Below, one piece after another: positions 1,757-46,953 of a stretch of DNA of 53,472 nt. The stretch is from IMG/VR virus record IMGVR_UViG_3300025930_000004, positions 1 through 53,472 of that record, one strand, 5' to 3'. Under the pieces are notes generated by a model. The model was not told the DNA's origin and made no database searches. It saw only the letters and a program-made list of their open reading frames with translations. The position numbers and the translations under genes were made by a program. This DNA comes from a virus. Lineage: Duplodnaviria > Caudoviricetes. How positions within the stretch are numbered: the first letter of the stretch is position 1; each line of letters opens with the position of its first letter.

Positions 1757-2005
1757 CTACTCCTGTCCTGGCGCATGACTCATCTTGGCGCGTAACTTCT
1801 TTTCCTCAGTGCCCCATGCCAACACATCGTTAGGCGTGCAGCCTAAGACCTCGACCAGTTTATCCAGATTGGTGGAAGCAAATGAGCCACCAGCAAACCA
1901 CGTCGATATAGTTTGCTTGCTCACGCCGATCTCCTCGGCTAGATGCGCAAAGCGTCTAATTTTTAGTTTGCGCATTTGGGCTTGCACCTTACCCTTTACG
2001 ATCAT
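1757..2005 (-). CDS. XRE/Cro-CI family HTH repressor
   Basis: LAEEIGVSKQTISTW..LDKLVEVLGCTPNDVL; GGAGG RBS before GTG/ATG at 2008/2005. Confidence 0.85.
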   Translation of the reverse strand: MIVKGKVQAQMRKLKIRRFAHLAEEIGVSKQTISTWFAGGSFASTNLDKLVEVLGCTPNDVLAWGTEEKKLRAKMSHAPGQE

Positions 2006-2084
2006 CACCCTTTCCTCCCTTCGTGATTGATGCCTCCTATCTATTATAGTCAATCCGTATGAAATGTAAATACATAGCCGTACT

Positions 2085-2130
2085 TCGTAGGGTAATCGTA
2101 TGGAACAGATTGAACAAAGTGTGCTATAAT
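2085..2130 (+). promoter_or_regulatory. Rightward early promoter with candidate operator
   Basis: TG-C-TATAAT at 2122-2130; TCGTAGGGTAA at 2085-2095 also occurs inverted at 53310-53320. Confidence 0.55.
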
Positions 2131-2229
2131 TCAAGTGTACCAGAACGTTACACGAGCGAACAGAAAACCGGCGCCACCCTAGACAAGTTACGCCGGTTCT
2201 CCGAAACCCTAGCAAAAGGATTCAAAACC

Positions 2230-3134: not shown

Positions 3135-4211
3135 ATGTTCCAGAAAGCCACAAAGAAAGCCGCAAAGCTCAGAATGTCTATCGCTGGGCCGTCTGGGTCG
3201 GGCAAGACATACACCGCCTTGCTATTTGCGCAGGCTCTTTCTCCGAGCGGCAAAATTGCCGTTGTGGATACAGAGCATGGTAGCGCAAGCAAGTACGCCG
3301 ACCAGTTCGATTTTGATGTAGTTGAGTTATCGAACTTCCACCCGGACAAGTACGTCAAGGCCATCAGCGCCGCTGTGTCTGGTGGATACGAGGTTGTGAT
3401 CCTTGACTCCATTACCCACGCATGGAATGGTCCGGGGGGCATCCTGGCGATAGTCAACCAGAATTTCGGCAAGTGGAAGGACGTACAGCCGGTTGAGCAG
3501 GCGTTCATCGAAGCTATCGTGGGCAGCCCGATCCATATCATTGCCACGATGCGTGCCAAAGTGCAGTATGAGGTTGAGAAGGATACCAACGGCAAGCCCA
3601 GCCCGAAGAAAATCGGAATGGGGGCCATCCAGAGAGACGGAATGGAATATGAGTTTGACATTGCCGCCATGATGGACGTGCAGAACACCATCACTGTCGA
3701 AAAGACTCGCTGTTCAGCCATCCAGGGCGTTGTGGTCAACCGGCCTGACGCATCGTTTATGACGCCCATTCTGCGATGGCTGGCTGCTGGGCCGGTCCAC
3801 CCTGAAGTGCAATTCATGGCCGATGGCCAGCCGCCCGCTGAAGATGAGCAGCCCGCCGAAACCAGACCAGGCCAAATCACTGAGGCGCAGCTTAATACGA
3901 TCCATGCGCTGGGCGTGGCCCTCTACGGTAGCTCGGCCACCTGGGATGCCAAGCGGCCCGGCATCGTGGACGCAACGAGCAGCCACCGCACCAAATCGAG
4001 CAAGGAACTTTGGCAGGCGGAAGCGACTAGCCTGATCACGGTCCTGGAAAAGCGAGTGGTTGCCGAGGCGAAGCGACTCGCCAAGCCGCTGGTTGGTAGC
4101 GGGCAGATTGCCACGGTTGACGAAATTGACCAGTCCTATGGCGTGGAGCTGGCGCAGTCGTTGACGAATTTGCGCAAGGTGATTGAGCAGGCGCAGCCGG
4201 TGACGGCGTAG
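3135..4211 (+). CDS. Sak4-like AAA_24 ATPase (single-strand annealing / recombination)
   Basis: Walker A GPSGSGKT, VDTEHGS, VVILDSITHAW and EYEFD motifs; AGGAGG RBS; TAGACG-17-TAGAAT promoter at 3072-3100. Confidence 0.85.
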   Translation: MFQKATKKAAKLRMSIAGPSGSGKTYTALLFAQALSPSGKIAVVDTEHGSASKYADQFDFDVVELSNFHPDKYVKAISAAVSGGYEVVILDSITHAWNGPGGILAIVNQNFGKWKDVQPVEQAFIEAIVGSPIHIIATMRAKVQYEVEKDTNGKPSPKKIGMGAIQRDGMEYEFDIAAMMDVQNTITVEKTRCSAIQGVVVNRPDASFMTPILRWLAAGPVHPEVQFMADGQPPAEDEQPAETRPGQITEAQLNTIHALGVALYGSSATWDAKRPGIVDATSSHRTKSSKELWQAEATSLITVLEKRVVAEAKRLAKPLVGSGQIATVDEIDQSYGVELAQSLTNLRKVIEQAQPVTA

Positions 4212-4219
4212 GAGGAACC

Positions 4220-4405
4220 ATGAACACTGAATACAGAATCAAGGTTGAAACACTTGCGGATGCAGTGAAAGACTGGCGAGCTGATTTGCTTGGACCTATC
4301 CCCCCTGCAGAGGCAGAGAGGAAACTAGACGAGATTCGGCAACGGTTGGCAGCGATAGAACACACATTACGGGCCATGCTGAGAGATGCGCCACGGCTGA
4401 GATAG
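4220..4405 (+). CDS. Hypothetical protein
   Basis: AGGAGG RBS; 61 aa. Confidence 0.6.
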   Translation: MNTEYRIKVETLADAVKDWRADLLGPIPPAEAERKLDEIRQRLAAIEHTLRAMLRDAPRLR

Positions 4406-4484
4406 CTTGACGGCATAGGGTGCAGGGCCGGGGCGACTCGGCCTTGCTATTTCAAGTTGGCATAAGGAAAAGGAGAAGGGCATC

Positions 4485-4700
4485 ATGGGTTATGACAACA
4501 AGATTACATTCTCTATCGTTGGCACCAGCGAGGAACCAAACTATCCTATCGGTGCGATTGTGTACGCTCTGGAGGACTTGATCAAGCGGCTGAAGGAAAT
4601 CCCGCAAGAGGGCAACGACACAACCGGCAGCCTCACAATGGAAAGCGAGTTCGTAAAGCTGAGATTTTCTTGCAATGATAGACGGTCATGGGTCAAGTAG
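4485..4700 (+). CDS. Hypothetical protein
   Basis: AAGGAG RBS; 71 aa. Confidence 0.6.
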   Translation: MGYDNKITFSIVGTSEEPNYPIGAIVYALEDLIKRLKEIPQEGNDTTGSLTMESEFVKLRFSCNDRRSWVK

Positions 4701-4744
4701 TTAGGGTTGAGAACGTCGATTCCCATTAGGAATAGGAGGGTAGG

Positions 4745-5032
4745 ATGTTAGACGTAACGATATGCGACAGATGTAGCACGGTCATTTTGGGCGAGGATGC
4801 AAATGACGGATTTGGTGCATTTGAGGGTGGTACGCTCTGCAATGATTGCCATTCAGCAATGTGGCTTGATTTATGGGGCAAGTGGGATTGCCCTGTCTGT
4901 GGCAAGACGCACAGAGATCCGAACAAGGTAAGACAGACGTGCTGCGGTAAGTGCGGCTCTATCGTCAAACTGACGGATACGAATACGGAAGGGTGGCGAG
5001 AGGCAAAACCTACGGGCGAGACGGTTGACTGA
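4745..5032 (+). CDS. Zinc-ribbon protein
   Basis: Four CxxC pairs; GGAGG RBS. Confidence 0.7.
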   Translation: MLDVTICDRCSTVILGEDANDGFGAFEGGTLCNDCHSAMWLDLWGKWDCPVCGKTHRDPNKVRQTCCGKCGSIVKLTDTNTEGWREAKPTGETVD

Positions 5033-5093
5033 CTTTGAAAACAGTCCGGCTCATAGAGCATAGCACGCCCAGCCAGGGCGGAAGGGGTGAGCG

Positions 5094-5381
5094 ATGGACG
5101 GGCGAATCGTTTACGATTGGGGGCAACCAATGGGCGTCAAGATTAGCACGGCGGATGACGATGTGAGGCGAGGAGCTAGGAGGGGTGAGGGGATGACAGG
5201 CAGCAAAACGATTTTGGAGCTTGAACGTATGGGGCTAGTGTCCACAGATGCCGAAATTGAACGGCTGCGGGCAGAGCGTGACGACCTCGCCGCCAAGCTG
5301 GAGGCGGCTAACGCTGAGTTGCACGAGCTGCGCATCAAGGCGGGGATGGGAGGGGCGAGGGGCAATCCATGCGAAATATAG
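5094..5381 (+). CDS. Hypothetical coiled-coil protein (start uncertain)
   Basis: DAEIERLRAERDDLAAKLE coiled coil. Confidence 0.5.
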   Translation: MDGRIVYDWGQPMGVKISTADDDVRRGARRGEGMTGSKTILELERMGLVSTDAEIERLRAERDDLAAKLEAANAELHELRIKAGMGGARGNPCEI

Positions 5382-5626
5382 ACTGGCGGCAGGCCCAGGT
5401 CGGCTACTGGTATACGTGGTGCTGCCACCTGGATTTGTCTCAAATCGTGGATGAAACTGATTTGGCCGAATGCCTGGAGGAGTGGGAACTTGATAGCGAC
5501 CTTCCGCCTCACACGGTCTGGAAAACCAGGCGTGATGCGTTGTTGGATATACGAGATCAGTGGACACGTTACCCAGATGTGATAGCAGAAATCGATGCGC
5601 TGTTGGCGAATGACGCCGTTCCTTAA
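5369..5626 (+). CDS. Hypothetical protein
   Basis: 85 aa, overlapping start, GAGGGG RBS. Confidence 0.6.
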   Translation: MRNIDWRQAQVGYWYTWCCHLDLSQIVDETDLAECLEEWELDSDLPPHTVWKTRRDALLDIRDQWTRYPDVIAEIDALLANDAVP

Positions 5627-5646
5627 TGCAACGTTCAGGCAACGCA

Positions 5647-5675
5647 TTGACAGTCACGAACGGACGTGCTATGCT
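5647..5675 (+). promoter_or_regulatory. Near-consensus promoter (candidate late promoter)
   Basis: TTGACA-17 nt-TATGCT with extended TG. Confidence 0.75.
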
Positions 5676-5714
5676 AGGGTGCAGTACGCAGCGTACATAA
5701 GCGCCCTGCCAAAT

Positions 5715-5831
5715 ATGAACGCAGATAACGACGAGTTGCGGCAATTTTTGATTATACTTCGCCAAGCATTGCTGATGATTGTCTCGTGGATCGAGCGTAA
5801 ATATAACCTGAAACAGCCGACAGCTAAATAA
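5715..5831 (+). CDS. 38-aa amphipathic peptide
   Basis: MNADNDELRQFLIILRQALLMIVSWIERKYNLKQPTAK between promoter and terminator; no clear SD. Confidence 0.55.
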   Translation: MNADNDELRQFLIILRQALLMIVSWIERKYNLKQPTAK

Positions 5832-5871
5832 GTGCCAGTACCGTAAGGTCCCGGCAAAGAGTTTACACCAG

Positions 5872-5916
5872 TAGCTCCAATGTTCCCGGTGGGAATGTTG
5901 GAGCTATTTGTTTTCT
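5872..5916 (+). terminator. Intrinsic terminator / attenuator
   Basis: TAGCTCCAATGTTCCC / GGGAATGTTGGAGCTA followed by TTTGTTTTCT. Confidence 0.75.
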
Positions 5917-6036
5917 GACTGGACCCCATTTTTCAGAAGGAGGGGATGTTACTAGCATCCCCTCCCCTGCCCGGTAGAGGGGACGAACCCCCACCGGACA
6001 ATAACATTATACTCCTGCGCCGCCGCCAGCGAAATC

Positions 6037-7035
6037 ATGAAAACAGGTGACTATGCGGGCGATGCAGCGATGCAGCATAGGAGCCACCGGCCCTACCTGC
6101 GCCCGGTCGAATCATGTGCCCCGATACCCATGAGCAGTGCAGAGGCTGGACGTGTGATTATCGCAGCGCCATCCGAATACGATGCGGGTATATCAGTCCA
6201 GGCGCTGCCTCATCAGATAGATGAAGTATCCGAGTCTATCCGTTCCTTTTTTCACCCTGTGCCATTGCTAGGCCGGGTGACGGCAGAGAAGCTTTTCAAT
6301 GAGTTACGTAAGGGCGCCATCGGGTTCTGGTTTATCGGGCATGGTTTATCCGGCTCCTCTGGCGGGCTGGTGCTAAGTGACGGGATTGTGTCGCCTCGTT
6401 CCATCGGGCGCTATCTGGCCATCGCTCGAATCGAGTGGAGCTATCTCAACACCTGCGACAGCGGCGCACTCGTTGAAGCACTCCAGGCGGCGCATGCACA
6501 CGATATTTACGCCAATATTACAGCGGAGATTAACGACTCAGAGGCAACGCAGAACGGGGTGCTGATGTCGCAGGGGATAGCGGACCTCGGCAGCATCAAA
6601 CGGGCTTACAGGTGGGTGGTCAGCGGTGGCCCGTCGAAACTGAGAAGATTCCCCTCGCCAGATGGCGAGATTGCAGAGCAGGACATGGCGGAAAAAGAGC
6701 GAATGCCCCCATACATCCCCATTGATGAAAAGCTGAGAGGGCTGATTGTTGACCATGAAATCAAGCTCGCCCGCCTTGAAGATACGGTGCTTCACAATAA
6801 AGAGTTGACCCTGGATTTTGTTCGTGAGTTGCGGGGAGACATGGCGGCGCTGAAAGAGGAAACCAAGCCATTGGCGCAGGCTGGGCTGCTGGCGCAGTCG
6901 CAGCAAACAGGCAGCGGCGGCGGGAATAGCGCCCGATGGGTGCAGATTGTCGCCGTTTTGCTCATTACGATTCTTTTCGTCCTGGTAATTCTGCTGGTTT
7001 TTGCGGCTGTGGGCGGTGGTTTATTCAGAACATGA
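6037..7035 (+). CDS. CHAT (caspase-like) protease domain with coiled coil and C-terminal TM anchor; start uncertain (6037 or 6130)
   Basis: FWFIGHG catalytic His, GLVLSDG, YLNTCDS catalytic Cys, IND..A motif; long hydrophobic C-terminal helix. Confidence 0.75.
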   Translation: MKTGDYAGDAAMQHRSHRPYLRPVESCAPIPMSSAEAGRVIIAAPSEYDAGISVQALPHQIDEVSESIRSFFHPVPLLGRVTAEKLFNELRKGAIGFWFIGHGLSGSSGGLVLSDGIVSPRSIGRYLAIARIEWSYLNTCDSGALVEALQAAHAHDIYANITAEINDSEATQNGVLMSQGIADLGSIKRAYRWVVSGGPSKLRRFPSPDGEIAEQDMAEKERMPPYIPIDEKLRGLIVDHEIKLARLEDTVLHNKELTLDFVRELRGDMAALKEETKPLAQAGLLAQSQQTGSGGGNSARWVQIVAVLLITILFVLVILLVFAAVGGGLFRT

Positions 7036-7427
7036 CGAAGTACCTGAAGGGTCCAAACTCGTGGCCGCTCTTTCTGGCGTTACTCGCCGTCCCCTATTTC
7101 TTCAGCCCCAAATCCTGGTGGGTGACACTTTTGTTTGCCGAGCTATTTGCAATTTACCTGGCATGGGCTGTGGCTTGGCTTATCGAGTACAACCGCTTGC
7201 AGCGCAAACCGGCTACGCCTCCCTTTGTGATTGCTTTGGGGTCGTCAGGCGTGGCCTTGCTGCTGGGGTCGCTGGCGGTAGCTCCTGATGGGCTATGGAA
7301 TTTCGACGGGCTGCGCATCTATTCACGATGGCTCTGGGGTATCAGCCTGGGATTTATTGCCGTCGCTGTCTACATGGAGTGCTGGCGGGTTTACCTGGGC
7401 GTGCGTGCGCAGGTGGACCACGACTGA
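7032..7427 (+). CDS. Four-TM membrane protein
   Basis: ATGA overlap; four hydrophobic segments in 131 aa. Confidence 0.75.
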   Translation: MTKYLKGPNSWPLFLALLAVPYFFSPKSWWVTLLFAELFAIYLAWAVAWLIEYNRLQRKPATPPFVIALGSSGVALLLGSLAVAPDGLWNFDGLRIYSRWLWGISLGFIAVAVYMECWRVYLGVRAQVDHD

Positions 7428-7449
7428 GATAAGGGAGGGGTAAAGCGCT

Positions 7450-8010
7450 GTGGAAAGCTGGAGCGTGTCCCATAAAGCCTTGCAGCTATTCTGTGCGTCG
7501 TTTTGGGAGACTGCGGACGATTGCCAGTTGATTCTGGATGAAATCGGCATCAGCGGCAGCAGAATCAACCTCTCCGAGCCTAGCATCATGCGCTGGCTCA
7601 GTATCATTCGTGAGTTGATGCGCAAGAACGACGGCTCGATGGGCCGTCTGGTCACTGTGCTGATAAAGCAATATCCAGAGAACAAACAATTGCTGGCCGT
7701 ATGTTCCCCCTGGATCGCAGCCGATCCAGCTATGCGTGGACAGTCTATGCAGCCGGAATCACCGGACGATGTACCACCCGGCGCTGTGCTGGTCAAAAAG
7801 TTCGTCAACGATAATTCTCTCGTGCCCGTGGTAGCGCCGCATGATTTTGCTGATGAGGCCGGGCTGGTTGTCCCACGAATCGACACGCTCTGGGAGGCGA
7901 TGGTTGAAACGGAGCGGCGGCTGAACGAACTGGAGCGGCGCTGGGATGAATTGTACCAGTGGAAAGATTCGCTATTTGGACAGCATACGTCCCAACAGGA
8001 AAACCCATGA
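7450..8010 (+). CDS. EAD1-like (death-like adaptor) domain with C-terminal coiled coil
   Basis: ILDEIGISGSRINL..RWLSIIREL..GSMGRLVTVLIKQYPENKQL fits the EAD1 helical pattern; GGAGG RBS. Confidence 0.6.
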   Translation: MESWSVSHKALQLFCASFWETADDCQLILDEIGISGSRINLSEPSIMRWLSIIRELMRKNDGSMGRLVTVLIKQYPENKQLLAVCSPWIAADPAMRGQSMQPESPDDVPPGAVLVKKFVNDNSLVPVVAPHDFADEAGLVVPRIDTLWEAMVETERRLNELERRWDELYQWKDSLFGQHTSQQENP

Positions 8011-9554
8011 CAGAACCTACCATCGTAGCATCTTCTGACGAACTTCGCTCTGCGCTTTCCTCAGCCAAACCAGGCGCCGTCATCCAGTTGCGCACCGGCG
8101 CCTATCCTGGCGTCTACACCCTCAGCAAACCCGGCGTTACCCTTGAGCCCGTTCCCGGCGAGTCACCACGATTCACCGGCCCACCGAAACCCATCGCAGG
8201 CACAAAACCGATTTGGCTGAATCTCCAGTCAGCCGCCAAAGGTGCAACGGTGCGCTACCTGGCTTTCGAGCGCATGGGCAACATCGAGGGCGCCAAAGCC
8301 TATAACGACTTTGGCATCCAGATCGGCGCTCCAGACGTGACGATTGACACTTGTCGTCTCCAGGGCATGACGAAGGGCGTCCAGGTAGTCGGCAAGGCGT
8401 CAACCGGCGTAACCATCATTCGCAACCATATTGGCCCGACCTATCAGGCTAACATCGTTGTCGCCACCAGCTACGGCGTAGTGCGTAAGCTGCTCATCAC
8501 TCAGAACACCCTAGAGGCCAGCTATATCGAGGATGGGGTACAGACGATACAGGATTTCCAGGCGCCCAATACCGAGACGGACGTGTCGAATTTGGGCGTC
8601 ATTATCTACGGCAACACGATTGACTCGCACGGGGAAAACGCCCTTGATTTCAAGGGCGCCGCCCTGGTGGTGGCTGAGGGCAACCTGATACGCCACATTG
8701 CCGGGTCCAACGATGGGCCACTAGGCGGGTGGGATACCACGTCTGGCATGTCCATCATGCACGGCGCCAACGCCAGTAAGGGCCAAATCTGCCAAATCCT
8801 GGTGCGCAATAACGACATACAGGAATCTTCCGGGGGCATTCGAGTATTTGCCGGCTGGAAGGTGGTTCACAACGTCCTGGTCAGCAACAATTTCTCGATG
8901 GCTCCTGCGCCGCACGAAGGCGTTGGCATCTTGCAGAATGGCGACGCATCCAACGCCGCTATCAAAAACAACCTGGTCGCCGGGCACAAGGGCGGCGACC
9001 TCGTACTATCGGTGGACTCGCCAGAGTTCAAAAATAACCCGCCCTTTGTAGGGCCGGGCGTGGCATTGACCACGACGCTGGGCGATGGCAGCGGGCGCAT
9101 CGTGTTGCTGAAAGATGCAAGCTATTTTACAGACTGGTTTGGCCGCATGGACCTACCACCCGAAGTCCTCTATCTGAAGAATCAACGGTGCGTGGTGCAG
9201 GCTGTGGATTACTCAGCCAACACCGTCACACTGGACCGTGATGTAGAGTGGCAGGATGGCGACCCGGTGTTCTGGCGCAGCCCTGAGCCGGTTGTGGGCT
9301 TTCAGTCTGATGACTATATCCCGCCGACAGAACCGCCCGTAGAGCCAACAGAACCACCCGTGGAGCCTGTAGAGCCACCAGTCGAAACCGGCACGATTAT
9401 CTTGACGGTGACTATCGACGCAACGGCGGAACAGGCGCAGGCAATCAGAGATGCCATTGAGGATGGCGCTATCAGCATCGGCGTGGCTATTGGCGACGTG
9501 GTTGTACCGGGTGGTGTGGCCGTGGCAGGCGCTGTTGAGGACGACGAACTGTAG
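8007..9554 (+). CDS. Right-handed parallel beta-helix (pectin-lyase-like) protein
   Basis: ALSSAKPGAVIQLRTGAY cap; IxxN ladders; PEPPVE linker near the C-terminus. Confidence 0.8.
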   Translation: MTEPTIVASSDELRSALSSAKPGAVIQLRTGAYPGVYTLSKPGVTLEPVPGESPRFTGPPKPIAGTKPIWLNLQSAAKGATVRYLAFERMGNIEGAKAYNDFGIQIGAPDVTIDTCRLQGMTKGVQVVGKASTGVTIIRNHIGPTYQANIVVATSYGVVRKLLITQNTLEASYIEDGVQTIQDFQAPNTETDVSNLGVIIYGNTIDSHGENALDFKGAALVVAEGNLIRHIAGSNDGPLGGWDTTSGMSIMHGANASKGQICQILVRNNDIQESSGGIRVFAGWKVVHNVLVSNNFSMAPAPHEGVGILQNGDASNAAIKNNLVAGHKGGDLVLSVDSPEFKNNPPFVGPGVALTTTLGDGSGRIVLLKDASYFTDWFGRMDLPPEVLYLKNQRCVVQAVDYSANTVTLDRDVEWQDGDPVFWRSPEPVVGFQSDDYIPPTEPPVEPTEPPVEPVEPPVETGTIILTVTIDATAEQAQAIRDAIEDGAISIGVAIGDVVVPGGVAVAGAVEDDEL

Positions 9555-9557
9555 GCG

Positions 9558-10226
9558 ATGGCCACAATCACCTATTACCTGACCGATACGCTGGCATCCG
9601 GCAGCGCACACATGGCGCTACAGGAAGGCGGATCGGCGCCCACCACGGCCCGCATCTCTACCGGCTGGATTGTCGGCACCACAGCCGCCACGGTCTATTC
9701 TCGGATGGATGCGCAGACTGAGCGGGCCAATGCAACGTTGACATCGACCGTTCAGCCGAACGGCGGGCCGGATAACACACTAGGCGATTGTTTCCGCACG
9801 GCGACCACGCTCAACGGTTCATTTGCTGCCGGGAACTGGGCATTTGACTGGAAGGTACAGGGCGAGACCAGAGTAACCAGCACGACAGGCGGGCGTCTCC
9901 GCTTTCGCATGTGGCGCAGCGTCAACGCTGACGGCTCATCAGCCACAGAGATCACCGCCGCTACGCAGACATCAACACTGTTTGCTGCTCTAGCTAACAG
10001 CGCATCCCAGGCCATAGCCAAGACTTATGACCCAGGCGCTTTTACCCTAGCAAACGAATACCTATTCATTCAGCACGCCCTCAGCATCACCACGGCGGGC
10101 GATAACTCAACTGCTGACGTGCATTTGTGCGTCGGTACAGGCAATTCAATTGTAACGACCGACTTTACGGTGGCCACGTCCCTACCGCCATTGCCACGGG
10201 GCAGACTCTGGAGAAAAAGGCTATGA
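9558..10226 (+). CDS. Putative virion structural protein (beta-rich)
   Basis: T/A/G/S-rich 222 aa. Confidence 0.6.
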   Translation: MATITYYLTDTLASGSAHMALQEGGSAPTTARISTGWIVGTTAATVYSRMDAQTERANATLTSTVQPNGGPDNTLGDCFRTATTLNGSFAAGNWAFDWKVQGETRVTSTTGGRLRFRMWRSVNADGSSATEITAATQTSTLFAALANSASQAIAKTYDPGAFTLANEYLFIQHALSITTAGDNSTADVHLCVGTGNSIVTTDFTVATSLPPLPRGRLWRKRL

Positions 10227-10699
10227 ACGGGAAAATATACTCGATTATCCTACCCGCTACCGCCGTAACAACCGCCATCGACCTGTGCGAAATCCAGCCG
10301 GCAGACGACCGCCCTTGTCGCATTGTCGGCTGGGAGATTCTTCAGACCACCGATGTCGGTGATGCTGCTGAGGAAATTCTACCTATCCAGGTGATTCGTG
10401 GCTTTACCACTTCCGGCTCAGTGGGCGGCACGGCGCCGACGCCACGTGACATCAACCGCACAGGCGCAACAGCAGGCTTTACCGTGGAAGTGATGAACAC
10501 CACCGTTGCCAATACCGGCACGAGCCATACGCTCTATGAGGGCGGTTGGAATATCCGCATGTCGCACGTCTACTGGCCCGATGAGCAGTTGATGCCACAG
10601 GCAAGCCAGGCCGACGTAACGATGGTGGTGCGCTTGCCGTCAGCGCCTGCTGACTCTCTGACTATTCGGGGAACGGTCTACGTACTCGAAGAGGCATAG
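10223..10699 (+). CDS. Putative virion structural protein
   Basis: ATGA overlap; beta-rich 158 aa. Confidence 0.6.
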   Translation: MNGKIYSIILPATAVTTAIDLCEIQPADDRPCRIVGWEILQTTDVGDAAEEILPIQVIRGFTTSGSVGGTAPTPRDINRTGATAGFTVEVMNTTVANTGTSHTLYEGGWNIRMSHVYWPDEQLMPQASQADVTMVVRLPSAPADSLTIRGTVYVLEEA

Positions 10700-10702
10700 T
10701 CA

Positions 10703-12310
10703 ATGCGTTTTATCAGGCGACCACGGCGAAAGGCGCTAAATCGTGGTTGGCGCTTTATACCGTCAAAGGCAGGCGGCACTCAGTTTAACCAGAGCGCAAC
10801 CGGCGGCGCTACACCAGCGGGGGCGCTTACTAAGCAGACCAGCACGGCCAAAACAGGCGCATTCGCATCCGCAGGCGCATTACTCAAGCGCATCAACACG
10901 AGTAAGACAGGGGGATTCACACCCGCCGGGGTATTACTCAAGCAGGCAGGTAAGGTTCTAACAGGCGGTCTAACATCCGCCGGGGCGCTGCTGAAGCGGA
11001 CGGCCAAAGCTTTTACAGGTGGGCTGACATCTTCCGGCGCTCTGCTCAATCAATTACAGCGGGCGCTTACCGGCTCAGTTGCAAGTGCAGGCACTTTAAC
11101 AAGACAGGCACAAAAGGTTTTATCCGGCGCTCTCACGTCATCCGGCGCATTGACCAAACAGACCCGCCGTGCACTCACCGGGGCAATGACCAGCAGCGGG
11201 GCGCTCGCAGCCATTCGCTTTATCCTGCTGGCCTTGACCGGAACACTCACCAGTTCGGGCGCACTGGCAAAGCAGACGGCTAGGGCGCTAATCGGGGCAC
11301 TCAGTTCGACGGGCTCACTGACCAGGCAAGCGGCCAAGGCGCTAACAGGGGCGCTCGATTCATCGGGTGCGCTTGCATCTATCCGCACTTTCTTGCTAGT
11401 CCTGGCCGGCAGCGTGGGCATGGCCGGGGCAATGGCTAAACAGGTCGGCAAAGCCTTTGCCGGGGCTGTATCGCCTATAGGGGCACTGGCCAAACAAGTC
11501 AGCAAGGCGCTCGTTGGTGTACTCAGTTCATCGGGTGCGCTGACCGTTATCAAGACGATCCTATTTGCGCTATCGGGCAGCCTGTCAATGTCGGGCGCAT
11601 TGACTCGGCAGGTGCGTACTTCGGTTGTCGGCTCACTTTCTGCGAGTGGGGGGCTAGTGCGTTCAGTCGGGCTACTGCTCTCTGGCGTGCTAGGTGCGGG
11701 GGGGCTGCTGGTCAGGCGCACCGGCAAAGGTTTATCTGGGGCGCTTGGGTCCGGTGGGGTACTCGCATCTATCCGTACAGTCCTGCTGTCCCTGGCCGGT
11801 ACTGTGCCAATCGCCGGGTCGCTTACCAAACAGGCCTATAGGGACTTCGTTGGGGCTGTAGCGCCTGTAGGTGCATTGGCGAAACAGGCTAACAAGATGC
11901 TTGCGGGCGCAGTGGCATCGTCAGGGGTCGTCACGACCCTGCGCCTGGTGATGGTGGTTCTAGCGGGCGTCGTCAGTTCAACGGGCTCACTAAGCGTCAG
12001 TATCGCCCGCTCACTGGCCGGCAGCCTTAGCCCATCCGGTGCAGTAGTTAAGCAGATTGGGCGCTCACTATCGGGCGTGGTGGATATAACCGGCACTCAG
12101 ATAGCCGTGTTCTTTGTGGAGTTGATTTATCGAATCGTGCGGCTGGCCGGTTCATTCGCCGGTAAAGTTGGATTGTCGGGCGTGTTTCAGAGCCATACGT
12201 CGCTTACAGGTGTATTCCGTAGTCAATCGTCGTTGCAAGGTGAGTTTCGTAATCGTGAATCGCTGGGGGGCGAGACTCGCCAGCGACATGATCTAGAGGG
12301 AGAGGTTTAA
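10703..12310 (+). CDS. Repeat protein with ~24 units of 18/20 aa
   Basis: Consensus ALTGALTSSGALTKQxxR/K. Confidence 0.75.
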   Translation: MRFIRRPRRKALNRGWRFIPSKAGGTQFNQSATGGATPAGALTKQTSTAKTGAFASAGALLKRINTSKTGGFTPAGVLLKQAGKVLTGGLTSAGALLKRTAKAFTGGLTSSGALLNQLQRALTGSVASAGTLTRQAQKVLSGALTSSGALTKQTRRALTGAMTSSGALAAIRFILLALTGTLTSSGALAKQTARALIGALSSTGSLTRQAAKALTGALDSSGALASIRTFLLVLAGSVGMAGAMAKQVGKAFAGAVSPIGALAKQVSKALVGVLSSSGALTVIKTILFALSGSLSMSGALTRQVRTSVVGSLSASGGLVRSVGLLLSGVLGAGGLLVRRTGKGLSGALGSGGVLASIRTVLLSLAGTVPIAGSLTKQAYRDFVGAVAPVGALAKQANKMLAGAVASSGVVTTLRLVMVVLAGVVSSTGSLSVSIARSLAGSLSPSGAVVKQIGRSLSGVVDITGTQIAVFFVELIYRIVRLAGSFAGKVGLSGVFQSHTSLTGVFRSQSSLQGEFRNRESLGGETRQRHDLEGEV

Positions 12311-12312
12311 TC

Positions 12313-12948
12313 ATGCTTGGTGGAAACATGGCATTAGGCGGCTCAATGACCGCCAAGAAAGTGGGTGCGGTCGGCCCTGGCTTTGCATGGCACTTACGCA
12401 ACCGGATGCGCCGTAGCTACTGGCTGGGCTGGTTCTACGCTCAACTAGCATATCTGTTCAATCGCTTGACTGGTATTCCAACCATTACCAGCAACTTGGC
12501 AATTCGGGTGCGCCGCTCGACAGGCGAATGGATTGACTACGGCATTGTCAGTTATAGGCTAGTCACTGACGCAGGCGTAGCCTTCATCGTTGACGATTGG
12601 GACAACAGCGGCACGGACATCAGCACGTTGAATTATCACGGGTGTGGCACTGGCGGCACCGCTGAAGCGGCGGGCGATACTGCGCTCGTTACTGAAAGCA
12701 CCACGGCGCTGAATCCAGATAGTACGAGGGCCACCGGCACCCGCAGCCAGCCCACAGCGCCGCAATATCGCAGTGTTGGTACGCTGACCTTTGACGCCAG
12801 CGCCGCCGTAACCGAACACGGACTATTCAGCCAGGCAGCTACAGGCGGCGGCACGCTTTGGGATCGCAGCCTCTTTAGCGCCATCAATGTGGCCTCAGGT
12901 GACTCGATCCAATTTACGTACACCGTATCTCTCAGCAGTGGCGGGTGA
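12313..12948 (+). CDS. Putative tail/baseplate-associated structural protein
   Basis: GTGGTAEAAGDTAL..E, TEHGLF and FSAINVASGDS motifs typical of fibre/baseplate N-terminal domains. Confidence 0.6.
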   Translation: MLGGNMALGGSMTAKKVGAVGPGFAWHLRNRMRRSYWLGWFYAQLAYLFNRLTGIPTITSNLAIRVRRSTGEWIDYGIVSYRLVTDAGVAFIVDDWDNSGTDISTLNYHGCGTGGTAEAAGDTALVTESTTALNPDSTRATGTRSQPTAPQYRSVGTLTFDASAAVTEHGLFSQAATGGGTLWDRSLFSAINVASGDSIQFTYTVSLSSGG

Positions 12949-13295
12949 GCATGACGACCACAGCACAAAATGTCACCATGTGGGCCGGGGATACGATTGT
13001 ACTGGAATTCGCCATCACTGACTCGGCCACAGATGCAGACAAGAATCTAAGCGGCTCATCTATCCGCTGGGTGATGGTCGGCTACACCGGAATCGTGGTG
13101 GTGGACAAGTCGACCGGCGACGGCGTAACCATCACCAATGCCGTAGGGGGCGTGTTCCAGGTTGCGCTGGAGCCTGCCGATACTGAGGAATTGCCCGGTG
13201 GGGTATATACCCACGAGGCCGAGGTAACGGACAGTCTAGGCAATATCTCAACTGTGGCAACGGGTGAAATCATGCTCAAGGCAAGCTACGCATAG
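12945..13295 (+). CDS. BppU-N-like beta-sandwich structural protein
   Basis: GDTIVLEFAITD..NLSG..GVFQVAL..DT..G.YTHEAEVTD..G. Confidence 0.6.
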   Translation: MSMTTTAQNVTMWAGDTIVLEFAITDSATDADKNLSGSSIRWVMVGYTGIVVVDKSTGDGVTITNAVGGVFQVALEPADTEELPGGVYTHEAEVTDSLGNISTVATGEIMLKASYA

Positions 13296-13304
13296 GGGGC
13301 ATCA

Positions 13305-13403
13305 ATGTGGACTCTGATCGCCACATATCTGATTTTCGCAACATGCGCCGCCGTTGCCGTCTACTGCGCCCTTGTCATAGGCGCCAGGGCAGAAAGGAGT
13401 TGA
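13305..13403 (+). CDS. 32-aa single-TM peptide
   Basis: MWTLIATYLIFATCAAVAVYCALVIGARAERS; AGGGGG RBS. Confidence 0.5.
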   Translation: MWTLIATYLIFATCAAVAVYCALVIGARAERS

Positions 13404-13406
13404 ACC

Positions 13407-13565
13407 ATGTCATTGGGTACCATTTTGCTGATCCTGCTCATCGTTTTGCTGCTCTACTCGGTCCCGACCTGGCCGCATTCTCAGGGCTGGGGCTACGGTC
13501 CAAGCGGGCTATTGTTCATCGTTGTGATCGTTCTGGTCGTCTTGCTGCTCACGGGTCGCCTGTGA
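13407..13565 (+). CDS. DUF3309-family small membrane protein
   Basis: MSLGTILLILLIVLLLYSVPTWPHSQGWGYGPSG...LLTGRL; AAGGAG RBS. Confidence 0.85.
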   Translation: MSLGTILLILLIVLLLYSVPTWPHSQGWGYGPSGLLFIVVIVLVVLLLTGRL

Positions 13566-13648
13566 TGGAAGCGTTTGCGAAGGCGGCTATGTGCGTGGCG
13601 GTGCTGGGTATTTTCTTGCTTTTCGCAGTATGGGCAGGTCGCACATGA
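13565..13648 (+). CDS. 27-aa single-TM peptide
   Basis: TGATG and ATGA overlaps at its two ends. Confidence 0.5.
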   Translation: MEAFAKAAMCVAVLGIFLLFAVWAGRT

Positions 13649-13896
13649 TGAGCCGCCGTCGCTTCCTGTCCCGCCTCCTGCGCTTTCTGCCTGCTGTGGC
13701 CGCTGCGCCGTTGGCACAATTCACGCCGCCTGAGCGTGAGCCGCAGACGCCGGAACAAAAGCGGCTGGACAAGGCAGAGGGGCAAATCTTTTACTTGCTC
13801 GATTCAGACCGCCGCCAGAATGGACGGCTGGACAGGATTGAACAGAAATTGCCGACGATGGACCCGTTTGGGCGCTACCGAAAGAAAACGATGTGA
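13645..13896 (+). CDS. Small protein with twin-arginine-like N-terminus and coiled coil
   Basis: MMSRRRFLSRLLRFLPAVAAAP. Confidence 0.6.
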   Translation: MMSRRRFLSRLLRFLPAVAAAPLAQFTPPEREPQTPEQKRLDKAEGQIFYLLDSDRRQNGRLDRIEQKLPTMDPFGRYRKKTM

Positions 13897-15242
13897 TGCA
13901 GCCGGTTAATCAGCTTATTGACCTGGATGACTACGAAGGTCATCCAAGAAACTATAACCGCCATCCTGACCAGCAGATACAGCGCATCATGGCCAGCCTG
14001 CGCAAGTTCGGCCAGCCTCGCAGTATCGTAGTGCATCGGGGTCAATTCCTGGCCGGTCATGGGGTGGCGGAAGCGGCCAGGCGGCTGGGCTGGAAGCAAT
14101 TGCGGGCTGACGTGCTGCCTGATGACTACCCCGAACACCTGGCGCTGGCCTATGTGGTGGCAGACAATGAACTGAGTAGACAGAGCGACCCAGACCAGGC
14201 GGCGCTTGCGGCCATCTTGCAGGAGGTGGGCCGGGTTGATGCGGAGTTGGTAGAGGCGGCGGGCTTTGGCAAGAAAGAGTTAGCGGATTTGTTGGCGAGT
14301 TTGACGCCGCCGCAATTGACCGTTGCCGACCCTGGCGCACAAACAGACCGAGCCGAGGAGCTACAAGAAAAGTGGGAGACGGCAGACAACCAGCTATGGC
14401 GCATCGGGGAACATTTCGTTATCTGTGGCGATTGCCGTTCCCCTGACACCTGGGGCCGGTTACTTGATGCGGCTGATGTGGAGAAAGTCAACGGCGTGTT
14501 TACCTCACCACCCTACGCAGAACAGCGCAAAGAACAGTACGGGGGCATTCCGACCGCTGAGTATGTAGATTGGTGGGAAGCGGTGCAGGCGAATGTACGG
14601 GGCAATTTGGCCGGGGATGGGTCATTCTTTGTGAATATCAAGCCGCACTGCGAGGATGGGCAACGGGCGCTTTACGTGATGGACTTAGTAACGGCAATGG
14701 TAAGGCGCTGGGGCTGGCGGTATGTGGAGGAGGCTTGTTGGGTGCATCAAGGCTTCCCAGGTGAACCGCAACAAAGATTCCAAAATGCTTTTGAGCCAAT
14801 CTATATGTTCTCTCAAGGCAAGGTCAAGTTTTGCCCTGAGAATGTAGCTTATGAGAGTGATTCGGTAATGCAGTATGAGCCGGGATTGAATGTTAGGCAA
14901 CGCCAACGCTCTACCGGCGAATTAACGCCAATGGCAAACGTAAAACACAGTAAGGGTAAAGCCTACCCAAGAAATGTATTGCAGATAAGCAGTGCAACCG
15001 CCGATGTGCCGGAACACGCCGCCGCCTTCCCCGTCGCCCTGCCCGATTTCTTCATCCGTGCTTATTCCGATCCCGGTGACGTGTGGTGCGATCCGTTCCT
15101 GGGCAGCGGCACAACCATTGTAGCGGCCCACCAGAACAAGCGGCGGGGGCTGGGGATTGAGAAGTTGCCTAAATATGTAGCGGTCATTCTTGAAAGGCTG
15201 CAAGCGGTCGTGGGCCAATCGCCCGAACTAATGGATGGTTGA
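13893..15242 (+). CDS. ParB-like N-domain fused to N4/N6 DNA methyltransferase (beta class)
   Basis: HPRNYNRH..LAGHG..ADNE; TSPPY; HAAAFP; DPFLGSGTT. Confidence 0.9.
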   Translation: MMQPVNQLIDLDDYEGHPRNYNRHPDQQIQRIMASLRKFGQPRSIVVHRGQFLAGHGVAEAARRLGWKQLRADVLPDDYPEHLALAYVVADNELSRQSDPDQAALAAILQEVGRVDAELVEAAGFGKKELADLLASLTPPQLTVADPGAQTDRAEELQEKWETADNQLWRIGEHFVICGDCRSPDTWGRLLDAADVEKVNGVFTSPPYAEQRKEQYGGIPTAEYVDWWEAVQANVRGNLAGDGSFFVNIKPHCEDGQRALYVMDLVTAMVRRWGWRYVEEACWVHQGFPGEPQQRFQNAFEPIYMFSQGKVKFCPENVAYESDSVMQYEPGLNVRQRQRSTGELTPMANVKHSKGKAYPRNVLQISSATADVPEHAAAFPVALPDFFIRAYSDPGDVWCDPFLGSGTTIVAAHQNKRRGLGIEKLPKYVAVILERLQAVVGQSPELMDG

Positions 15243-15247
15243 ACATC

Positions 15248-15721
15248 ATGGCGCTGAACAATGCACAAGACGCCATCATTGACGACCGCCGCCGCCTGGT
15301 TGCATCGCTCATTCTGCGCAAGCGCACGCAGCGGGAGGTTGTGACTGCGCTGACTATACAAGGCTATCGCAACCCAGACACCGGCGAACCGTGGAGCCTT
15401 GCCACCGTCAATGCCGATGTGCAGGCGCTACGCAGGCAATGGCGCAAAGAGGCAAGGCAGGATACAGCCGAACACAAGACTCGCCAGTTTGCCGAGTTGA
15501 ACGAGGTGATGAAGCAAGGGTGGGTAGACAACGATTTGAATGCGGTGTTGCGGGCGATGAAACAGCAGGCGGAATTGCTGGGGCTGGATGCGCCGACCGA
15601 GGAGGATCAGTTCGTTGTGGGCATGACATTGCCGGAATGGGAGAAGCGCCAAGCGACCAGCCGCCAGCAGGCAGCCGAGACGATGGAATTGTTTGACGAT
15701 GAGTTGGACACCGAGGACTAA
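15248..15721 (+). CDS. Putative terminase small subunit
   Basis: HTH-like TVNADVQALR and AELLGLDAP motif; directly upstream of the large subunit. Confidence 0.7.
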   Translation: MALNNAQDAIIDDRRRLVASLILRKRTQREVVTALTIQGYRNPDTGEPWSLATVNADVQALRRQWRKEARQDTAEHKTRQFAELNEVMKQGWVDNDLNAVLRAMKQQAELLGLDAPTEEDQFVVGMTLPEWEKRQATSRQQAAETMELFDDELDTED

Positions 15722-18452: not shown

Positions 18453-18586
18453 TGGGCTGTTGGAATGCTGGCGATATAGCAGTTTTGCTCATGGCCGCAG
18501 TGGTCTGTTCCTTCCCGATTATTGTTTTTGGCGGGATCATGCTTGTTGAAATTATCGAGGCGTTGAAATCATGTCGTGGCCGCTGA
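18452..18586 (+). CDS. Small membrane peptide
   Basis: TGATG coupling; 44 aa hydrophobic. Confidence 0.5.
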   Translation: MGCWNAGDIAVLLMAAVVCSFPIIVFGGIMLVEIIEALKSCRGR

Positions 18587-18759
18587 TTATCGGGCTCACT
18601 CTGGGCCTCGTCTGGATAGCCTTGCAGCGTAGAGCGCCAGAGCCTACTCGCTGGATGGTGAGCGTGGAGCCGGCGAGTAGGCCCGCAGGGTGGGGCTGGG
18701 TGGGGCTGTTTCTGCTTGTTGACTTGATTGTATTGGCGTGGGTATGGATGGGAGCGTAA
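18571..18759 (+). CDS. Small two-TM protein
   Basis: 62 aa with two hydrophobic segments; TAATG coupling to next gene. Confidence 0.6.
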   Translation: MSWPLIIGLTLGLVWIALQRRAPEPTRWMVSVEPASRPAGWGWVGLFLLVDLIVLAWVWMGA

Positions 18760-19835
18760 TGAATCCATTGGCTCGTTTGTCTACAGCAACGACCGCTTTG
18801 GCGGAAGCAAAAAATCTGGACGACATTTTGCCGATCTTGAATCTGGCCGACGCCGCCCGCACGTATGCCAAAGCCGCCAAGCTAGGGCTAGAAGCGCAAA
18901 ACCACGCTGCCGAAATTCAGTTGAGAGCGGCACGCAAGGCGGGCCAAATCTTGCAGACGATGAAAAAGAACGGTGAATTAGATAAAGGCGGTCGGCCTTC
19001 AGAAAACCGATCACGTCTTGTTATCGGTTTGTCTGATCTCGGTGTCAAACCTATGCAGTCTCACCGTTGGCAAAAGGTGGCCGATGTGCCCGAAGAATTA
19101 TTCGAGACGCAGATCGCCACAGTGCCCGCACAGGGGAAGGAGTTGACTACCGCCGGTATGTTGAAAATTGCCAAAGCCAGTGAGCGAAACGGAAAGCCTG
19201 ACGCCATGGGGTCGGGCGACGGCTCTTTCGACTTGCTCCACAGCCCAATCGAGTCGCTTATCCTGCCCGCCGATTCCGTGGATGCCATTGTCACCGACCC
19301 ACCTTATCCGCAAGAGTATTTGCCGCTTTTCTCTGTGCTTTCCGATTTGGCAGCGCACGTGCTGAAGCCGGGCGGCTCTTTGTTTGTCATGGTTGGTCAA
19401 TCCTATCTACCAGAGGTGATTTGCCGACTCTCCGAGAAAATGTGCTATCACTGGACGCTTGCCTATATGACACCCGGGGGACAAGCGGTGCAACTATGGC
19501 AACGCAAAGTAAACACCTTTTGGAAGCCGATCCTTTGGTTCACCAAAGGCGACTATACCGGCTCGTGGCTGGGCGATGTAGCTAACAGCAAAGTCAACGA
19601 CAACGACAAGCGATTCCACGGCTGGGGTCAGTCGGAAAGCGGGATGATTGATTTGCTGCAACGATGCAGCGAGCCGCTTCAGACAATTCTCGATCCGTTC
19701 TGTGGTGGTGGTGCGACTGGTGTAGCGGCGCTTGCAACCGGACGTCATTTTATCGGGGCCGACAAAGAGGCTGAGTGTATCGAGACTTGTCGCTCTCGCC
19801 TGGTGGGAATGAGCCATGCAGACGTACAGCATTGA
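18759..19835 (+). CDS. DNA methyltransferase with helical N-terminal domain
   Basis: VTDPPY; HGWGQS; LDPFCGGGATG. Confidence 0.9.
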   Translation: MNPLARLSTATTALAEAKNLDDILPILNLADAARTYAKAAKLGLEAQNHAAEIQLRAARKAGQILQTMKKNGELDKGGRPSENRSRLVIGLSDLGVKPMQSHRWQKVADVPEELFETQIATVPAQGKELTTAGMLKIAKASERNGKPDAMGSGDGSFDLLHSPIESLILPADSVDAIVTDPPYPQEYLPLFSVLSDLAAHVLKPGGSLFVMVGQSYLPEVICRLSEKMCYHWTLAYMTPGGQAVQLWQRKVNTFWKPILWFTKGDYTGSWLGDVANSKVNDNDKRFHGWGQSESGMIDLLQRCSEPLQTILDPFCGGGATGVAALATGRHFIGADKEAECIETCRSRLVGMSHADVQH

Positions 19836-45503: not shown

Positions 45504-45506
45504 AGT

Positions 45507-46800: not shown

Positions 46801-46953
46801 GGTTTCACCGCCCTCGCAGAACGCCGATGAACACCATCAGCGCCAGCGCCGCTGGCCGAACTGGTTTGACGTGGTAGCCTTCGGCGTGGCGCTGAAACAG
46901 GCAACCCAAAGCAATGCCGGCCATGCAGGATAAAACGGTCACGGTAATGAAGT

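Follow-up and report, generated by a model that had tools for sequence, protein, structure and literature searches.

Introduction

Bacteria are known to employ caspase-fold proteases and death-fold adaptors in systems of host suicide and immunity. In bacterial gasdermin operons, a gene encoding a caspase-like protease stands beside a gene encoding a membrane-permeabilising protein, and the outcome is cell death. The CHAT immunity proteases include the SAVED-CHAT protein (PDB 8tl0), Csx29 (TPR-CHAT) of the type III-E CRISPR system, and Borvo. A further host system of actinobacteria, 'System 4', is presented in the pertinent sections of Kaur et al. (2020; PMC7159879) as an EACC1 protein with a single transmembrane (TM) helix combined with a caspase-domain protein. 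Here, we analyze a region of four linked genes, g1–g4 (6037–9554, plus strand), in a phage from soil (IMG/VR record IMGVR_UViG_3300025930_000004), whose whole 53,472-nucleotide stretch of DNA is referred to below as the window. The genes encode a predicted tail-anchored CHAT-type protease (g1), a small multi-TM protein (g2), a protein with an EAD1 adaptor domain (g3), and a protein with a predicted beta-helix fold (g4).

Among the CHAT immunity proteases, the SAVED-CHAT protein 8tl0 is the best match of g1, with the His and Cys residues located in the same strands. Unlike these proteases, g1 has neither a SAVED or TPR sensor nor repeats, is only about 300 amino acids long, is predicted to be anchored in the membrane, is carried by a phage, and stands at the head of a late operon. 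As in gasdermin operons, a gene for a caspase-fold protease (g1) lies beside a gene for a membrane protein (g2); unlike gasdermin, g2 is a predicted integral protein of 131 amino acids with four TM helices, not a soluble protein with an inhibitory tail, and the Pfam scan revealed no gasdermin family for g2. With System 4, which according to the same sections of PMC7159879 sometimes includes EAD1, g1–g2 share the combination of a membrane-associated small TM protein and a caspase-superfamily peptidase. Compared with System 4 as it is laid out there, the protease comes first, its partner has three to four TM helices instead of one Gly-patch helix, there is no variable C-terminal effector, and the genes are phage-borne. 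The EAD1 conflict systems covered in that source also differ from the window: g3 has EAD1, but there is no nucleoside triphosphatase core (MoxR-vWA, GAP1, or STAND), EAD1 occurs once, and the carrier is a phage.

The region also resembles holin-endolysin cassettes, which likewise lie before the terminase at the start of a late operon, behind a terminator, and encode a small multi-TM protein next to an enzyme that degrades the envelope. XhlA, XhlB, and XlyA are the products of the lysis genes of the Bacillus prophage PBSX, and the coiled coil and C-terminal TM tail of g1 resemble XhlA; one of 88 g1 relatives matches Pfam XhlA (PF10779), in a region of the helical linker kind. Unlike holin-endolysin cassettes, the window holds no recognisable peptidoglycan-hydrolase domain, and its enzyme has a predicted beta-helix fold. 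To our knowledge, neither a cysteine protease nor a death-fold adaptor has been described in a lysis cassette, and our literature search returned neither a lysis cassette with a CHAT protease nor a membrane-anchored phage CHAT family. A mycobacteriophage gene is annotated as CHAT in the relevant passage of a preprint (bioRxiv 10.1101/2023.05.30.542743). In related uncultured phages, the protease is kept beside cell-wall-degrading genes, which suggests that it is an undescribed part of host lysis by these phages.

Results

A minimal CHAT-type protease with a predicted tail anchor

The longest open reading frame (ORF) of g1 (6037–7035, plus strand) comprises 332 amino acids, the actual start being probably ATG 6130 or GTG 6154 because homologues begin there. 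The protein of about 300 residues consists of an N-terminal minimal CHAT-type caspase fold of 180 residues, followed by a long helix and one C-terminal membrane helix. The protease domain occupies residues 36–213 (6142–6675), most of which were modelled with a predicted local distance difference test (pLDDT) value of 75–94. According to the predicted secondary structure, residues 231–290 (6727–6906) form a long helical, coiled-coil-like linker, and hydropathy as well as the model place a TM helix at residues 298–325 (6928–7011), with about seven residues beyond it. We infer that the protease domain faces the cytoplasm, since g1 is tail-anchored and lacks a signal peptide.

The AlphaFold model of g1, built from 12 homologues, reached a pLDDT of 75–94 over residues 40–210. 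In this model, H102 follows strand 96–100 and C140 follows strand 134–138; the corresponding motifs, FIGHG and YLNTC, are present in the sequence. Both residues are invariant across the 12 close homologues, and they form the sole invariant columns in an alignment of 88 relatives whose identity to g1 goes down to about 19%. The dyad, which is predicted to be catalytic, is located behind the same two strands as in clan CD enzymes. In a Foldseek search with g1, the SAVED-CHAT filament 8tl0 took the first four places, one for each of its chains (E 3e-5 to 1.5e-4), followed by caspase-9 (2e-3), separase, gingipain, and Csx29. The exhaustive VIA alignment against 48,161 chains ranked 8tl0_A first (Z 15.9, root-mean-square deviation 2.8, 168 residues), well above the runners-up, a DdvA CHAT chain (Z 12.2) and Dronc (11.9); other CHAT, caspase, metacaspase, legumain, and separase chains gave Z 9–12. 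These matches, the invariance over 88 relatives, and the hydrophobic helix bear out the first-pass annotation, which had proposed a caspase/CHAT fold with an intact His/Cys dyad and a C-terminal anchor.

For g1 itself, no Pfam match was found at E ≤ 1, so it does not reach the cut-off of CHAT (PF12770), whereas the CHAT model is matched by 48 of the 88 relatives at E ≤ 0.01 (the best at 1.1e-10); the CHAT membership of g1 therefore rests on transitive homology and fold. By sequence, the best PDB match had an E of 0.26, and PHROGs and PADLOC gave no match. The sole strong viral structural match to full-length g1 was BFVD entry A0A1P8DJ94 (264 amino acids, 20% identity, E 5e-10). Judged by its model, g1 combines a minimal CHAT-type protease with a tail anchor, and it appears to be new as a phage-borne, tail-anchored, minimal form of a known kind of protease.

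The g1 family in phage genomes

In the following, L numbers denote loci and G numbers virus records of this analysis, G000 being the window. A profile search with the g1 family, covering 1.84 billion representatives of clusters at 50% identity, identified 362 representatives at E ≤ 1e-3, including 123 at E ≤ 1e-10. The 150 listed members are 162–317 amino acids long. A Kyte-Doolittle script predicted a hydrophobic helix in 150 of 159 family proteins, with a C-terminal location in the tails inspected. IMG/VR was scanned with the degenerate motif pattern W-F..H..G..L..N-[ST]-C-x-S and GTDB with a stricter one, so that only part of the family was sampled. True members were present in 39 of the 81 stretches retrieved from IMG/VR, as judged with a hidden Markov model (HMM), and in 6 of the 18 from GTDB, all six amid phage-like genes. 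The contig titles of the latter name three Chloroflexota metagenome-assembled genomes (MAGs) as well as Azonexus, Peribacteria, and Myxococcales MAGs, and binning may misplace phage contigs.

Although CHAT and EAD1 genes had been described in the first-pass annotation as normally host genes, this does not apply to the g1 branch: every member that could be placed belongs to a virus record or is surrounded by phage genes, the members being found only in uncultured phages and prophage-like MAG contigs, and none of those placed has a setting resembling a bacterial defence island. A tblastn search of 50,697 GenBank phages with g1 and two other members detected no family member, and blastn with the whole region gave no match in the same collection. 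No related loci were found with the g1-family alignment A1 in viral and genome contigs or with alignment A4 in genome contigs, and the portal protein, used as a single-protein query, had no match in viral contigs. Close relatives of g1 are rare, being represented by two short metagenome contigs, one of which (L003) keeps a 52%-identical g2 homologue directly after the protease.

The family is wired in three ways. Type A, to which the window belongs, combines CHAT, a helix, and one TM helix with a separate multi-TM ORF located after the protease. In type B, CHAT is fused to a 2-TM hairpin with the conserved motif ..PVPLFY..WWGGR, and in type C, represented by L086, an EAD1-CHAT protein is encoded beside a g3-type EAD1 protein; the CHAT domain of this fusion is still matched by the g1-family profile (E 6.6e-12). 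Type B genes (L093, L097, L104, L005, L010, L030, L081, and others) have head-completion genes on one side and tail-completion genes on the other, and a separate TM ORF is lacking. Among the type A genes, some stand right after the tape measure gene (L028, L034) or after genes for tail proteins (L070, L061).

Two further observations concern the protease gene. In a clade comprising L039, L064, L078, and L098 (e.g., L078 5809–6644), the protease domain and the coiled-coil/TM part are encoded by two overlapping ORFs, both of which are matched by the profile; possible explanations are a split gene, a frameshift, and a two-gene arrangement. Homing-endonuclease-like ORFs occur in or next to the protease region of L003 (1392–1607, minus strand), with an HNH-like Cys/His pattern recognized by eye, and of L098 (2726–3793), with a GIY-YIG-like N-terminus also recognized by eye.

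Lytic-enzyme genes beside the protease

No endolysin domain was found among 47 ORFs of the window scanned with Pfam (E ≤ 0.01), nor did six-frame scans of the window detect any of nine families (Amidase_2, Amidase_3, M23, GH108, GH25, Phage_lysozyme, SLT, NLPC_P60, PG_binding_1), in agreement with the earlier statement that the genome encodes no recognisable endolysin. Six-frame scans were extended to 41 virus records, namely the window, 39 records with a CHAT-TM gene, and the L086 record, of which 8 are at least 90% complete. M23 was present in five of the 41 records, GH108 in two, and SLT in one (in the same ORF as one M23), and the other six wall-hydrolase or wall-binding families gave nothing above the cut-off in these records. 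Six of the eight complete CHAT records contained none of the nine families.

The CHAT gene is no more than about 2.7 kb away from any of the eight peptidoglycan-hydrolase domain matches, and the records concerned contain no such match elsewhere; by a rough estimate, such proximity would arise by chance with a probability of about 15% per case. The M23 gene is located directly upstream of the protease gene in G012, G031, and G035 and two genes downstream of it in G022 and G029. The GH108 gene lies directly upstream of the protease gene in G030 and, in G040, directly upstream of the g3-type gene that precedes EAD1-CHAT. In L098, the ORF preceding the protease gene shares 46% identity with the L078 M23 protein, and the order is M23 homologue, CHAT, TM ORFs, ORFs of the size of the small and large terminase subunits (TerS and TerL; our reading), and a portal protein 37% identical to that of the window. 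The protease and its envelope-degrading neighbours are frequently located shortly ahead of the terminase.

The neighbouring hydrolases are modular, the G030, G029, and G022 proteins sharing an N-terminal region of about 350 amino acids and differing in their catalytic ends. Putative modular lysins in which such an unassigned N-terminal region of about 350 amino acids is joined to GH108, M23, or M23+SLT are encoded at L062 10985–12616, L061 6307–8466, and L046 4493–5857. A Pfam tally of neighbouring genes covered 31 loci, with up to three ORFs upstream (49 proteins) and up to four downstream (54 proteins). Of the 41 loci, ten were not included, five being short or duplicate and the ORF picker having lost the protease in the other five. 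The tally was mixed, with head-completion (3), tail-completion (2), M23 (3), Laminin_G_3 (4), and terminase subunit (2) proteins, and one capsid, one minor tail, and one tail terminator protein.

The putative membrane partner, adaptor, and beta-helix enzyme

The second gene, g2 (7032–7427, plus strand; ATG 7032), is coupled to g1 by an ATGA overlap and encodes a protein of 131 amino acids ending in RAQVDHD. The four TM helices ascribed to it earlier correspond to four hydrophobic stretches in the sequence, of which the hydropathy scripts call two to three as helices. No holin family was matched in Pfam (E ≤ 1) or PHROGs (E ≤ 0.01), and a protein atlas search returned nothing above 0.88; g2 may be termed holin-like by its size and position only. 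Downstream TM ORFs, defined as ORFs of 40–220 amino acids on the same strand starting at most 450 nt past the protease stop, were surveyed in the 36 loci with at least 500 nt of downstream sequence, near-duplicates (L039/L078, L037/L053) included. An ORF with at least two TM helices follows the protease in 18 of the 36 loci, mostly abutting or overlapping its stop codon, a 1-TM ORF is present in 6, and no TM ORF in 12, in 10 of which the protease itself ends in a conserved 2-TM hairpin. A single conserved g2 family accompanying the protease family was rejected, since the ORFs form at least five unrelated groups and g2 groups only with the L003 protein. Elsewhere in the window, a further small ORF with predicted membrane helices lies at 13307–13648 (plus strand), and the minus-strand TM ORFs 45342–45752 and 46306–46978 lie immediately beyond the tail-fibre genes and are oriented towards them. 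The small TM ORFs of the window could be alternative holins or membrane proteins expressed in lysogeny.

The third gene, g3 (7450–8010, plus strand), has a GTG start and encodes 186 amino acids. On sequence grounds, it carries an EAD1 adaptor domain (7474–7704): g3 itself matches Pfam EAD1 (PF19955) with an E of 1.8e-4 and 22.3 bits (cut-off 24.2), PF19955 is carried by 17 of 22 g3 homologues (45–87% identical), and the 49%-identical homologue of L086 exceeds the cut-off with 25.9 bits, which supports the earlier assignment. Beyond EAD1, a Pro-rich linker in which the motifs GAVLVKKF and VPVVAPxDFADEA are conserved leads to a C-terminal helix, likewise conserved. Neither PHROGs nor a tblastn search of the 50,697 GenBank phages gave a match to g3. 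The window contains no second EAD1, and among the 41 CHAT-bearing records EAD1 is limited to the window and L086. The order of the latter locus is GH108 fragment, g3 homologue, EAD1-CHAT, helix-turn-helix (HTH) small-terminase-like protein, TerL, and portal-sized ORF (our reading); its fusion protein matches CHAT at 1e-9 and EAD1 at 6e-9. Adjacent EAD gene pairs are regarded as a sign of homotypic EAD coupling in the part of PMC7159879 that deals with these domains, and the L086 g3 homologue beside EAD1-CHAT conforms to that adjacent-pair pattern of EAD1 systems. Complex prediction for g1 residues 36–296 with g3 scored 0.00 and gave no verdict.

The fourth gene, g4 (8007–9554, plus strand; ATG 8007), encodes a protein of 515 amino acids with a predicted right-handed beta-helix. 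The fold noted in the first-pass annotation is confirmed by Pfam Beta_helix (E 8e-9), by the model (pLDDT 86), and by 89 PDB matches at E ≤ 1e-3. The beta-helix extends over residues 1–345 and is followed by a small beta domain (about 355–423), a PxEPP linker, and a short tail; there is no N-terminal hydrophobic segment and no virion-attachment domain before the helix. Since the best solved matches are alginate lyase 6kfn (8e-7), a GH136 enzyme, AlgE4 epimerase, Pel9A, and phage tailspikes, the model points to a polysaccharide lyase/hydrolase fold and not to a peptidoglycan hydrolase. Its alignment contains invariant Asp, Glu, Lys, and Arg columns. PHROGs and a single-protein search of viral contigs gave no match to g4, and the atlas search returned generic beta-helix clusters only.

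Seventeen g4 homologues led to six IMG/VR loci; a seventh locus, L111, represents the tail paralogue. TerL was searched for in five records. It comes one to three ORFs after the g4 homologue in four of them, where small TM ORFs flank the homologue; in L108/G043, a 1977-amino-acid tail-like ORF separates the two. Amidase_2, M23, and Phage_lysozyme were not found in these five records. A type A protease is present in one of them, the complete L110/G045; this protease shares 27% identity with g1 across 158 residues (HMM E 6.5e-50). The order in L110, CHAT-TM, 4-TM ORF (ATGA overlap), g4 homologue (49% identical), 56-amino-acid 2-TM ORF, and TerL, is that of the window minus g3, and no envelope-degrading gene other than the g4 homologue is recognisable in this record.

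The region downstream of g4 contains g5–g9 (9558–13295), to which no function could be assigned. The product of g7 (10703–12310; 535 amino acids) consists of repeated Thr/Gly/Ala/Leu-rich units. Homologues of g7, g9, and g8 (35%, 49%, and 66% identical) occur in another order at L059 1230–5881, directly upstream of a CHAT-TM gene. Considered as a possible hidden endolysin, g8 (12313–12948) matched nothing in Pfam, only PHROG 5417 of unknown function, and nothing in the PDB by sequence; its sequence is, in our view, reminiscent of tail-fibre proteins.

Genome organization and the late arm

As had been presumed, the virus record that makes up the window is complete: its 53,472 bp carry direct terminal repeats, and CheckV puts its completeness at 100%. 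The gene content indicates that the phage is a temperate siphovirus type: Pfam scans identified an integrase (51841–52857, minus strand) and a CI-type repressor (1757–2215, minus strand), and a DnaC/IstB-like loader is also encoded on the minus strand. The long plus-strand arm encodes a ParB-methyltransferase, large terminase, portal, MuF-like, scaffold, tape measure, and tail proteins, and the tail module holds a second beta-helix protein, with PKD. An archaeal host was rejected because the DnaC/IstB-like loader, CI-type repressor, and ParB-methylase indicate bacteria.

The four genes open the plus-strand arm, and the same strand continues through the terminase, head, and tail genes. Both ATGA overlaps reported earlier for the four linked genes, g1/g2 at 7032–7035 and g3/g4 at 8007–8010, were found in the sequence, and the GTG of g3 (7450) lies 22 nt past the g2 stop codon and is preceded by a GGAGGG box; these couplings and the short g2–g3 gap argue for co-expression of g1–g4. 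A terminator-like hairpin on the plus strand (5870–5908; 18-pair stem, T-rich tail) separates the early genes from g1, the first gene past it. A sigma-70-like promoter candidate, TTGACA-17-TATGCT with TG (5647–5675, plus strand), is a consensus match only (10 of 12 positions) and lies about 200 nt upstream of the hairpin; together, the two elements resemble lambda pR'/tR' ahead of the lysis genes. The promoter scan detected no promoter-like site between the hairpin and g1, and such sites are no commoner in the scanned region than in shuffled sequence, so only the strong hairpin carries weight. The proposal of a late arm opening behind a promoter/terminator unit thus holds for the position and the hairpin, and for the promoter as a candidate site only. 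Contigs of a diverged relative (sequencing run X9) cover 3868–6037 and 7774–13849 and not 6038–7339, and no contig bridges the gap.

Some other features of the genome are recorded here. In the 919-amino-acid large terminase (15693–18452), Terminase_6N is matched at residues 51–256 and the PHROG terminase at 750–903, and a LAGLIDADG domain lies between them at residues 472–562; the splitting of the two terminase matches by this domain suggests, from the sequence, an intein that contains a homing endonuclease. Three genes encode DNA methyltransferases (13893–15242, 18738–19835, and 38559–39269); one of them, immediately ahead of the terminase, includes a fused ParB-like domain, and another is located between tail genes. 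A gene for an HTH_3 (Xre-type) regulator (27200–27637) lies amid the head-tail structural genes.

Discussion

We propose that g1–g4 are a lysis-region module with a protease accessory, forming the first four genes of the late operon, and hold this proposal to be about evenly balanced between right and wrong. A lysis region fits best because the genes stand at the head of the late operon before the terminase, with two membrane proteins and an adjacent, putatively envelope-cleaving enzyme that lacks an N-terminal hydrophobic segment, because the window has no other recognisable lysis genes, and because there are relatives in which the protease lies beside the only lytic enzyme. In such a module, g2 would act as a holin-like hole former, and g4 would be the envelope-degrading enzyme released through the g2 hole, in place of the M23 or GH108 hydrolases of the relatives. 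The g1 protein would be a late-acting protease controlling or executing membrane or envelope failure, the likeliest routes being cleavage of its membrane partner, of the lytic enzyme, or of a membrane-bound host target. The adaptor domain of g3 may couple the protease to a partner, as suggested by the EAD1/EAD1-CHAT gene pair in L086. The lysis module envisaged in the first-pass annotation gains support from the hydrolases beside CHAT in relatives and from the L110 order; the four genes are not a conserved unit.

A broader proposal, which we consider doubtful, is that tailed phages of poorly cultured hosts lyse them by a protease-dependent route, with a caspase-like trigger or executioner on the inner face of the membrane that is wired through EAD1 in some phages. 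Such a protease would cleave a multi-TM partner, a lytic enzyme, or an essential envelope-synthesis protein and would replace or gate the endolysin step; the EAD1 adaptor would wire it to its partner, possibly to the host's own EAD1 death network.

Several points weigh against a role in lysis. A cytoplasm-facing protease is unable to attack the wall itself, no lysis protease of this kind is known to us, and none was found in our search of the literature on CHAT or caspase-like phage proteases. The downstream TM ORFs belong to at least five unrelated sequence families without a holin-family match, the 4-TM ORF of L110 is only weakly like g2 (E 0.048), and the window contains alternative holin candidates at 18449–18759 (plus strand), 45342–45752, and 46306–46978 (both minus strand). 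The TM calls and ORF picks came from our own crude scripts, and 33 of the 41 CHAT-bearing records are fragments. Virion-associated lysins that act at entry, not endolysins, could account for the M23 and M23+SLT neighbours, and type B and some type A genes are placed in the manner of a moron. With tailspikes among its structural matches and the unexplained g5–g9 abutting it, g4 may be a depolymerase unrelated to g1. Finally, CHAT and EAD1 are otherwise hallmarks of conflict systems, as set out in the sections of PMC7159879 devoted to them.

This last point leads to the main alternative, the somewhat unlikely explanation that g1–g4 are a conflict module carried as a moron and placed near lysis genes through a shared insertion hotspot. 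In one variant, g1 and g2 would be an abortive-infection or superinfection-exclusion device composed of a membrane sensor and a caspase-like executioner, similar to bacterial defences based on CHAT; in another, g1 would be an anti-defence protease cutting membrane-bound host immune effectors. The g3 protein would be a decoy plugging the host EAD1 network. EAD homotypic coupling and a membrane-associated two-gene TM/caspase system are described in the corresponding sections of Kaur et al. (2020; PMC7159879), and Borvo is presented as a CHAT-domain defence in the relevant part of a preprint (bioRxiv 10.1101/2024.10.26.620412). The phage is temperate, as its integrase and CI-like repressor indicate, the strong hairpin parts g1 from the upstream genes, and the position of the gene varies among phages, structural operons included. 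The single EAD1 of the window is also in line with this explanation, as the partner of g3 may then be a host protein, and a counter-defence or death-hijacking role is possible, mainly for g3. However, PADLOC identified no family for g1–g4 and the four downstream ORFs (9558–12948) at E ≤ 0.1, and the members that could be placed are phage-borne, outside any defence-island-like setting. Moreover, g1 is co-oriented with and heads the late genes, away from the integrase and repressor and with no promoter-like site directly upstream, and the tight, repeated adjacency to the only lytic-enzyme genes would be unexpected for a random moron.

The four genes might instead be two or three unrelated units that happen to abut, namely a g1–g2 module of either function, g3 as an independent adaptor or decoy, and g4 belonging with g5–g9 to a virion-attached or soluble set of host-surface depolymerases or fibres, an arrangement that we regard as distinctly improbable. 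The conservation of a four-gene cassette expected in the first-pass annotation was not found: BLASTP detected g3 or g4 homologues in none of the 39 other CHAT-TM loci, EAD1 occurs in 2 of 41 records, and the protease in only one of five g4-bearing records. In addition, L059 has the g7, g8, and g9 homologues beside its CHAT gene in another order and without g3 or g4, the fold matches of g4 include tailspikes and capsule depolymerases, and the tail module has its own beta-helix protein with PKD. Against a chance assembly stand the ATGA couplings of g1/g2 and g3/g4 and the 22-nt g2–g3 gap, the repetition of the order g1-type gene, 4-TM ORF, g4-type gene in L110, and the link between g3-type and CHAT genes in L086; four of five records have their g4 homologues before the terminase beside small TM ORFs, outside tail modules, and g4 lacks an N-terminal virion-attachment domain. 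Pseudo-enzymes such as Raptor, c-FLIP, and EnvC-type proteins raise the question of whether g1 is a catalytically dead, non-proteolytic caspase-fold scaffold organizing membrane proteins. The domain is unusually small (about 180 residues), g1 itself reaches no Pfam model, and the pseudo-caspases c-FLIP and Raptor are among its fold matches, but His and Cys as the sole strictly invariant residues over 88 sequences, at the dyad strands of clan CD, make such a scaffold highly improbable.

Whichever role applies, the caspase fold appears here in a large family found in phage contexts, within a small module of two to four genes. Should the module serve defence or counter-defence, it would be an uncatalogued device carried by many soil phages. 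If the lysis-region proposal is correct, the protease would be a new class of lysis component beside holins, endolysins, and spanins, and it would help to explain how phages without recognisable endolysins leave their hosts, as in the six of eight complete genomes lacking all nine families. A protease-dependent route, if true, would mean that viruses use the logic of caspases and death-fold adaptors to time the death of the cell.

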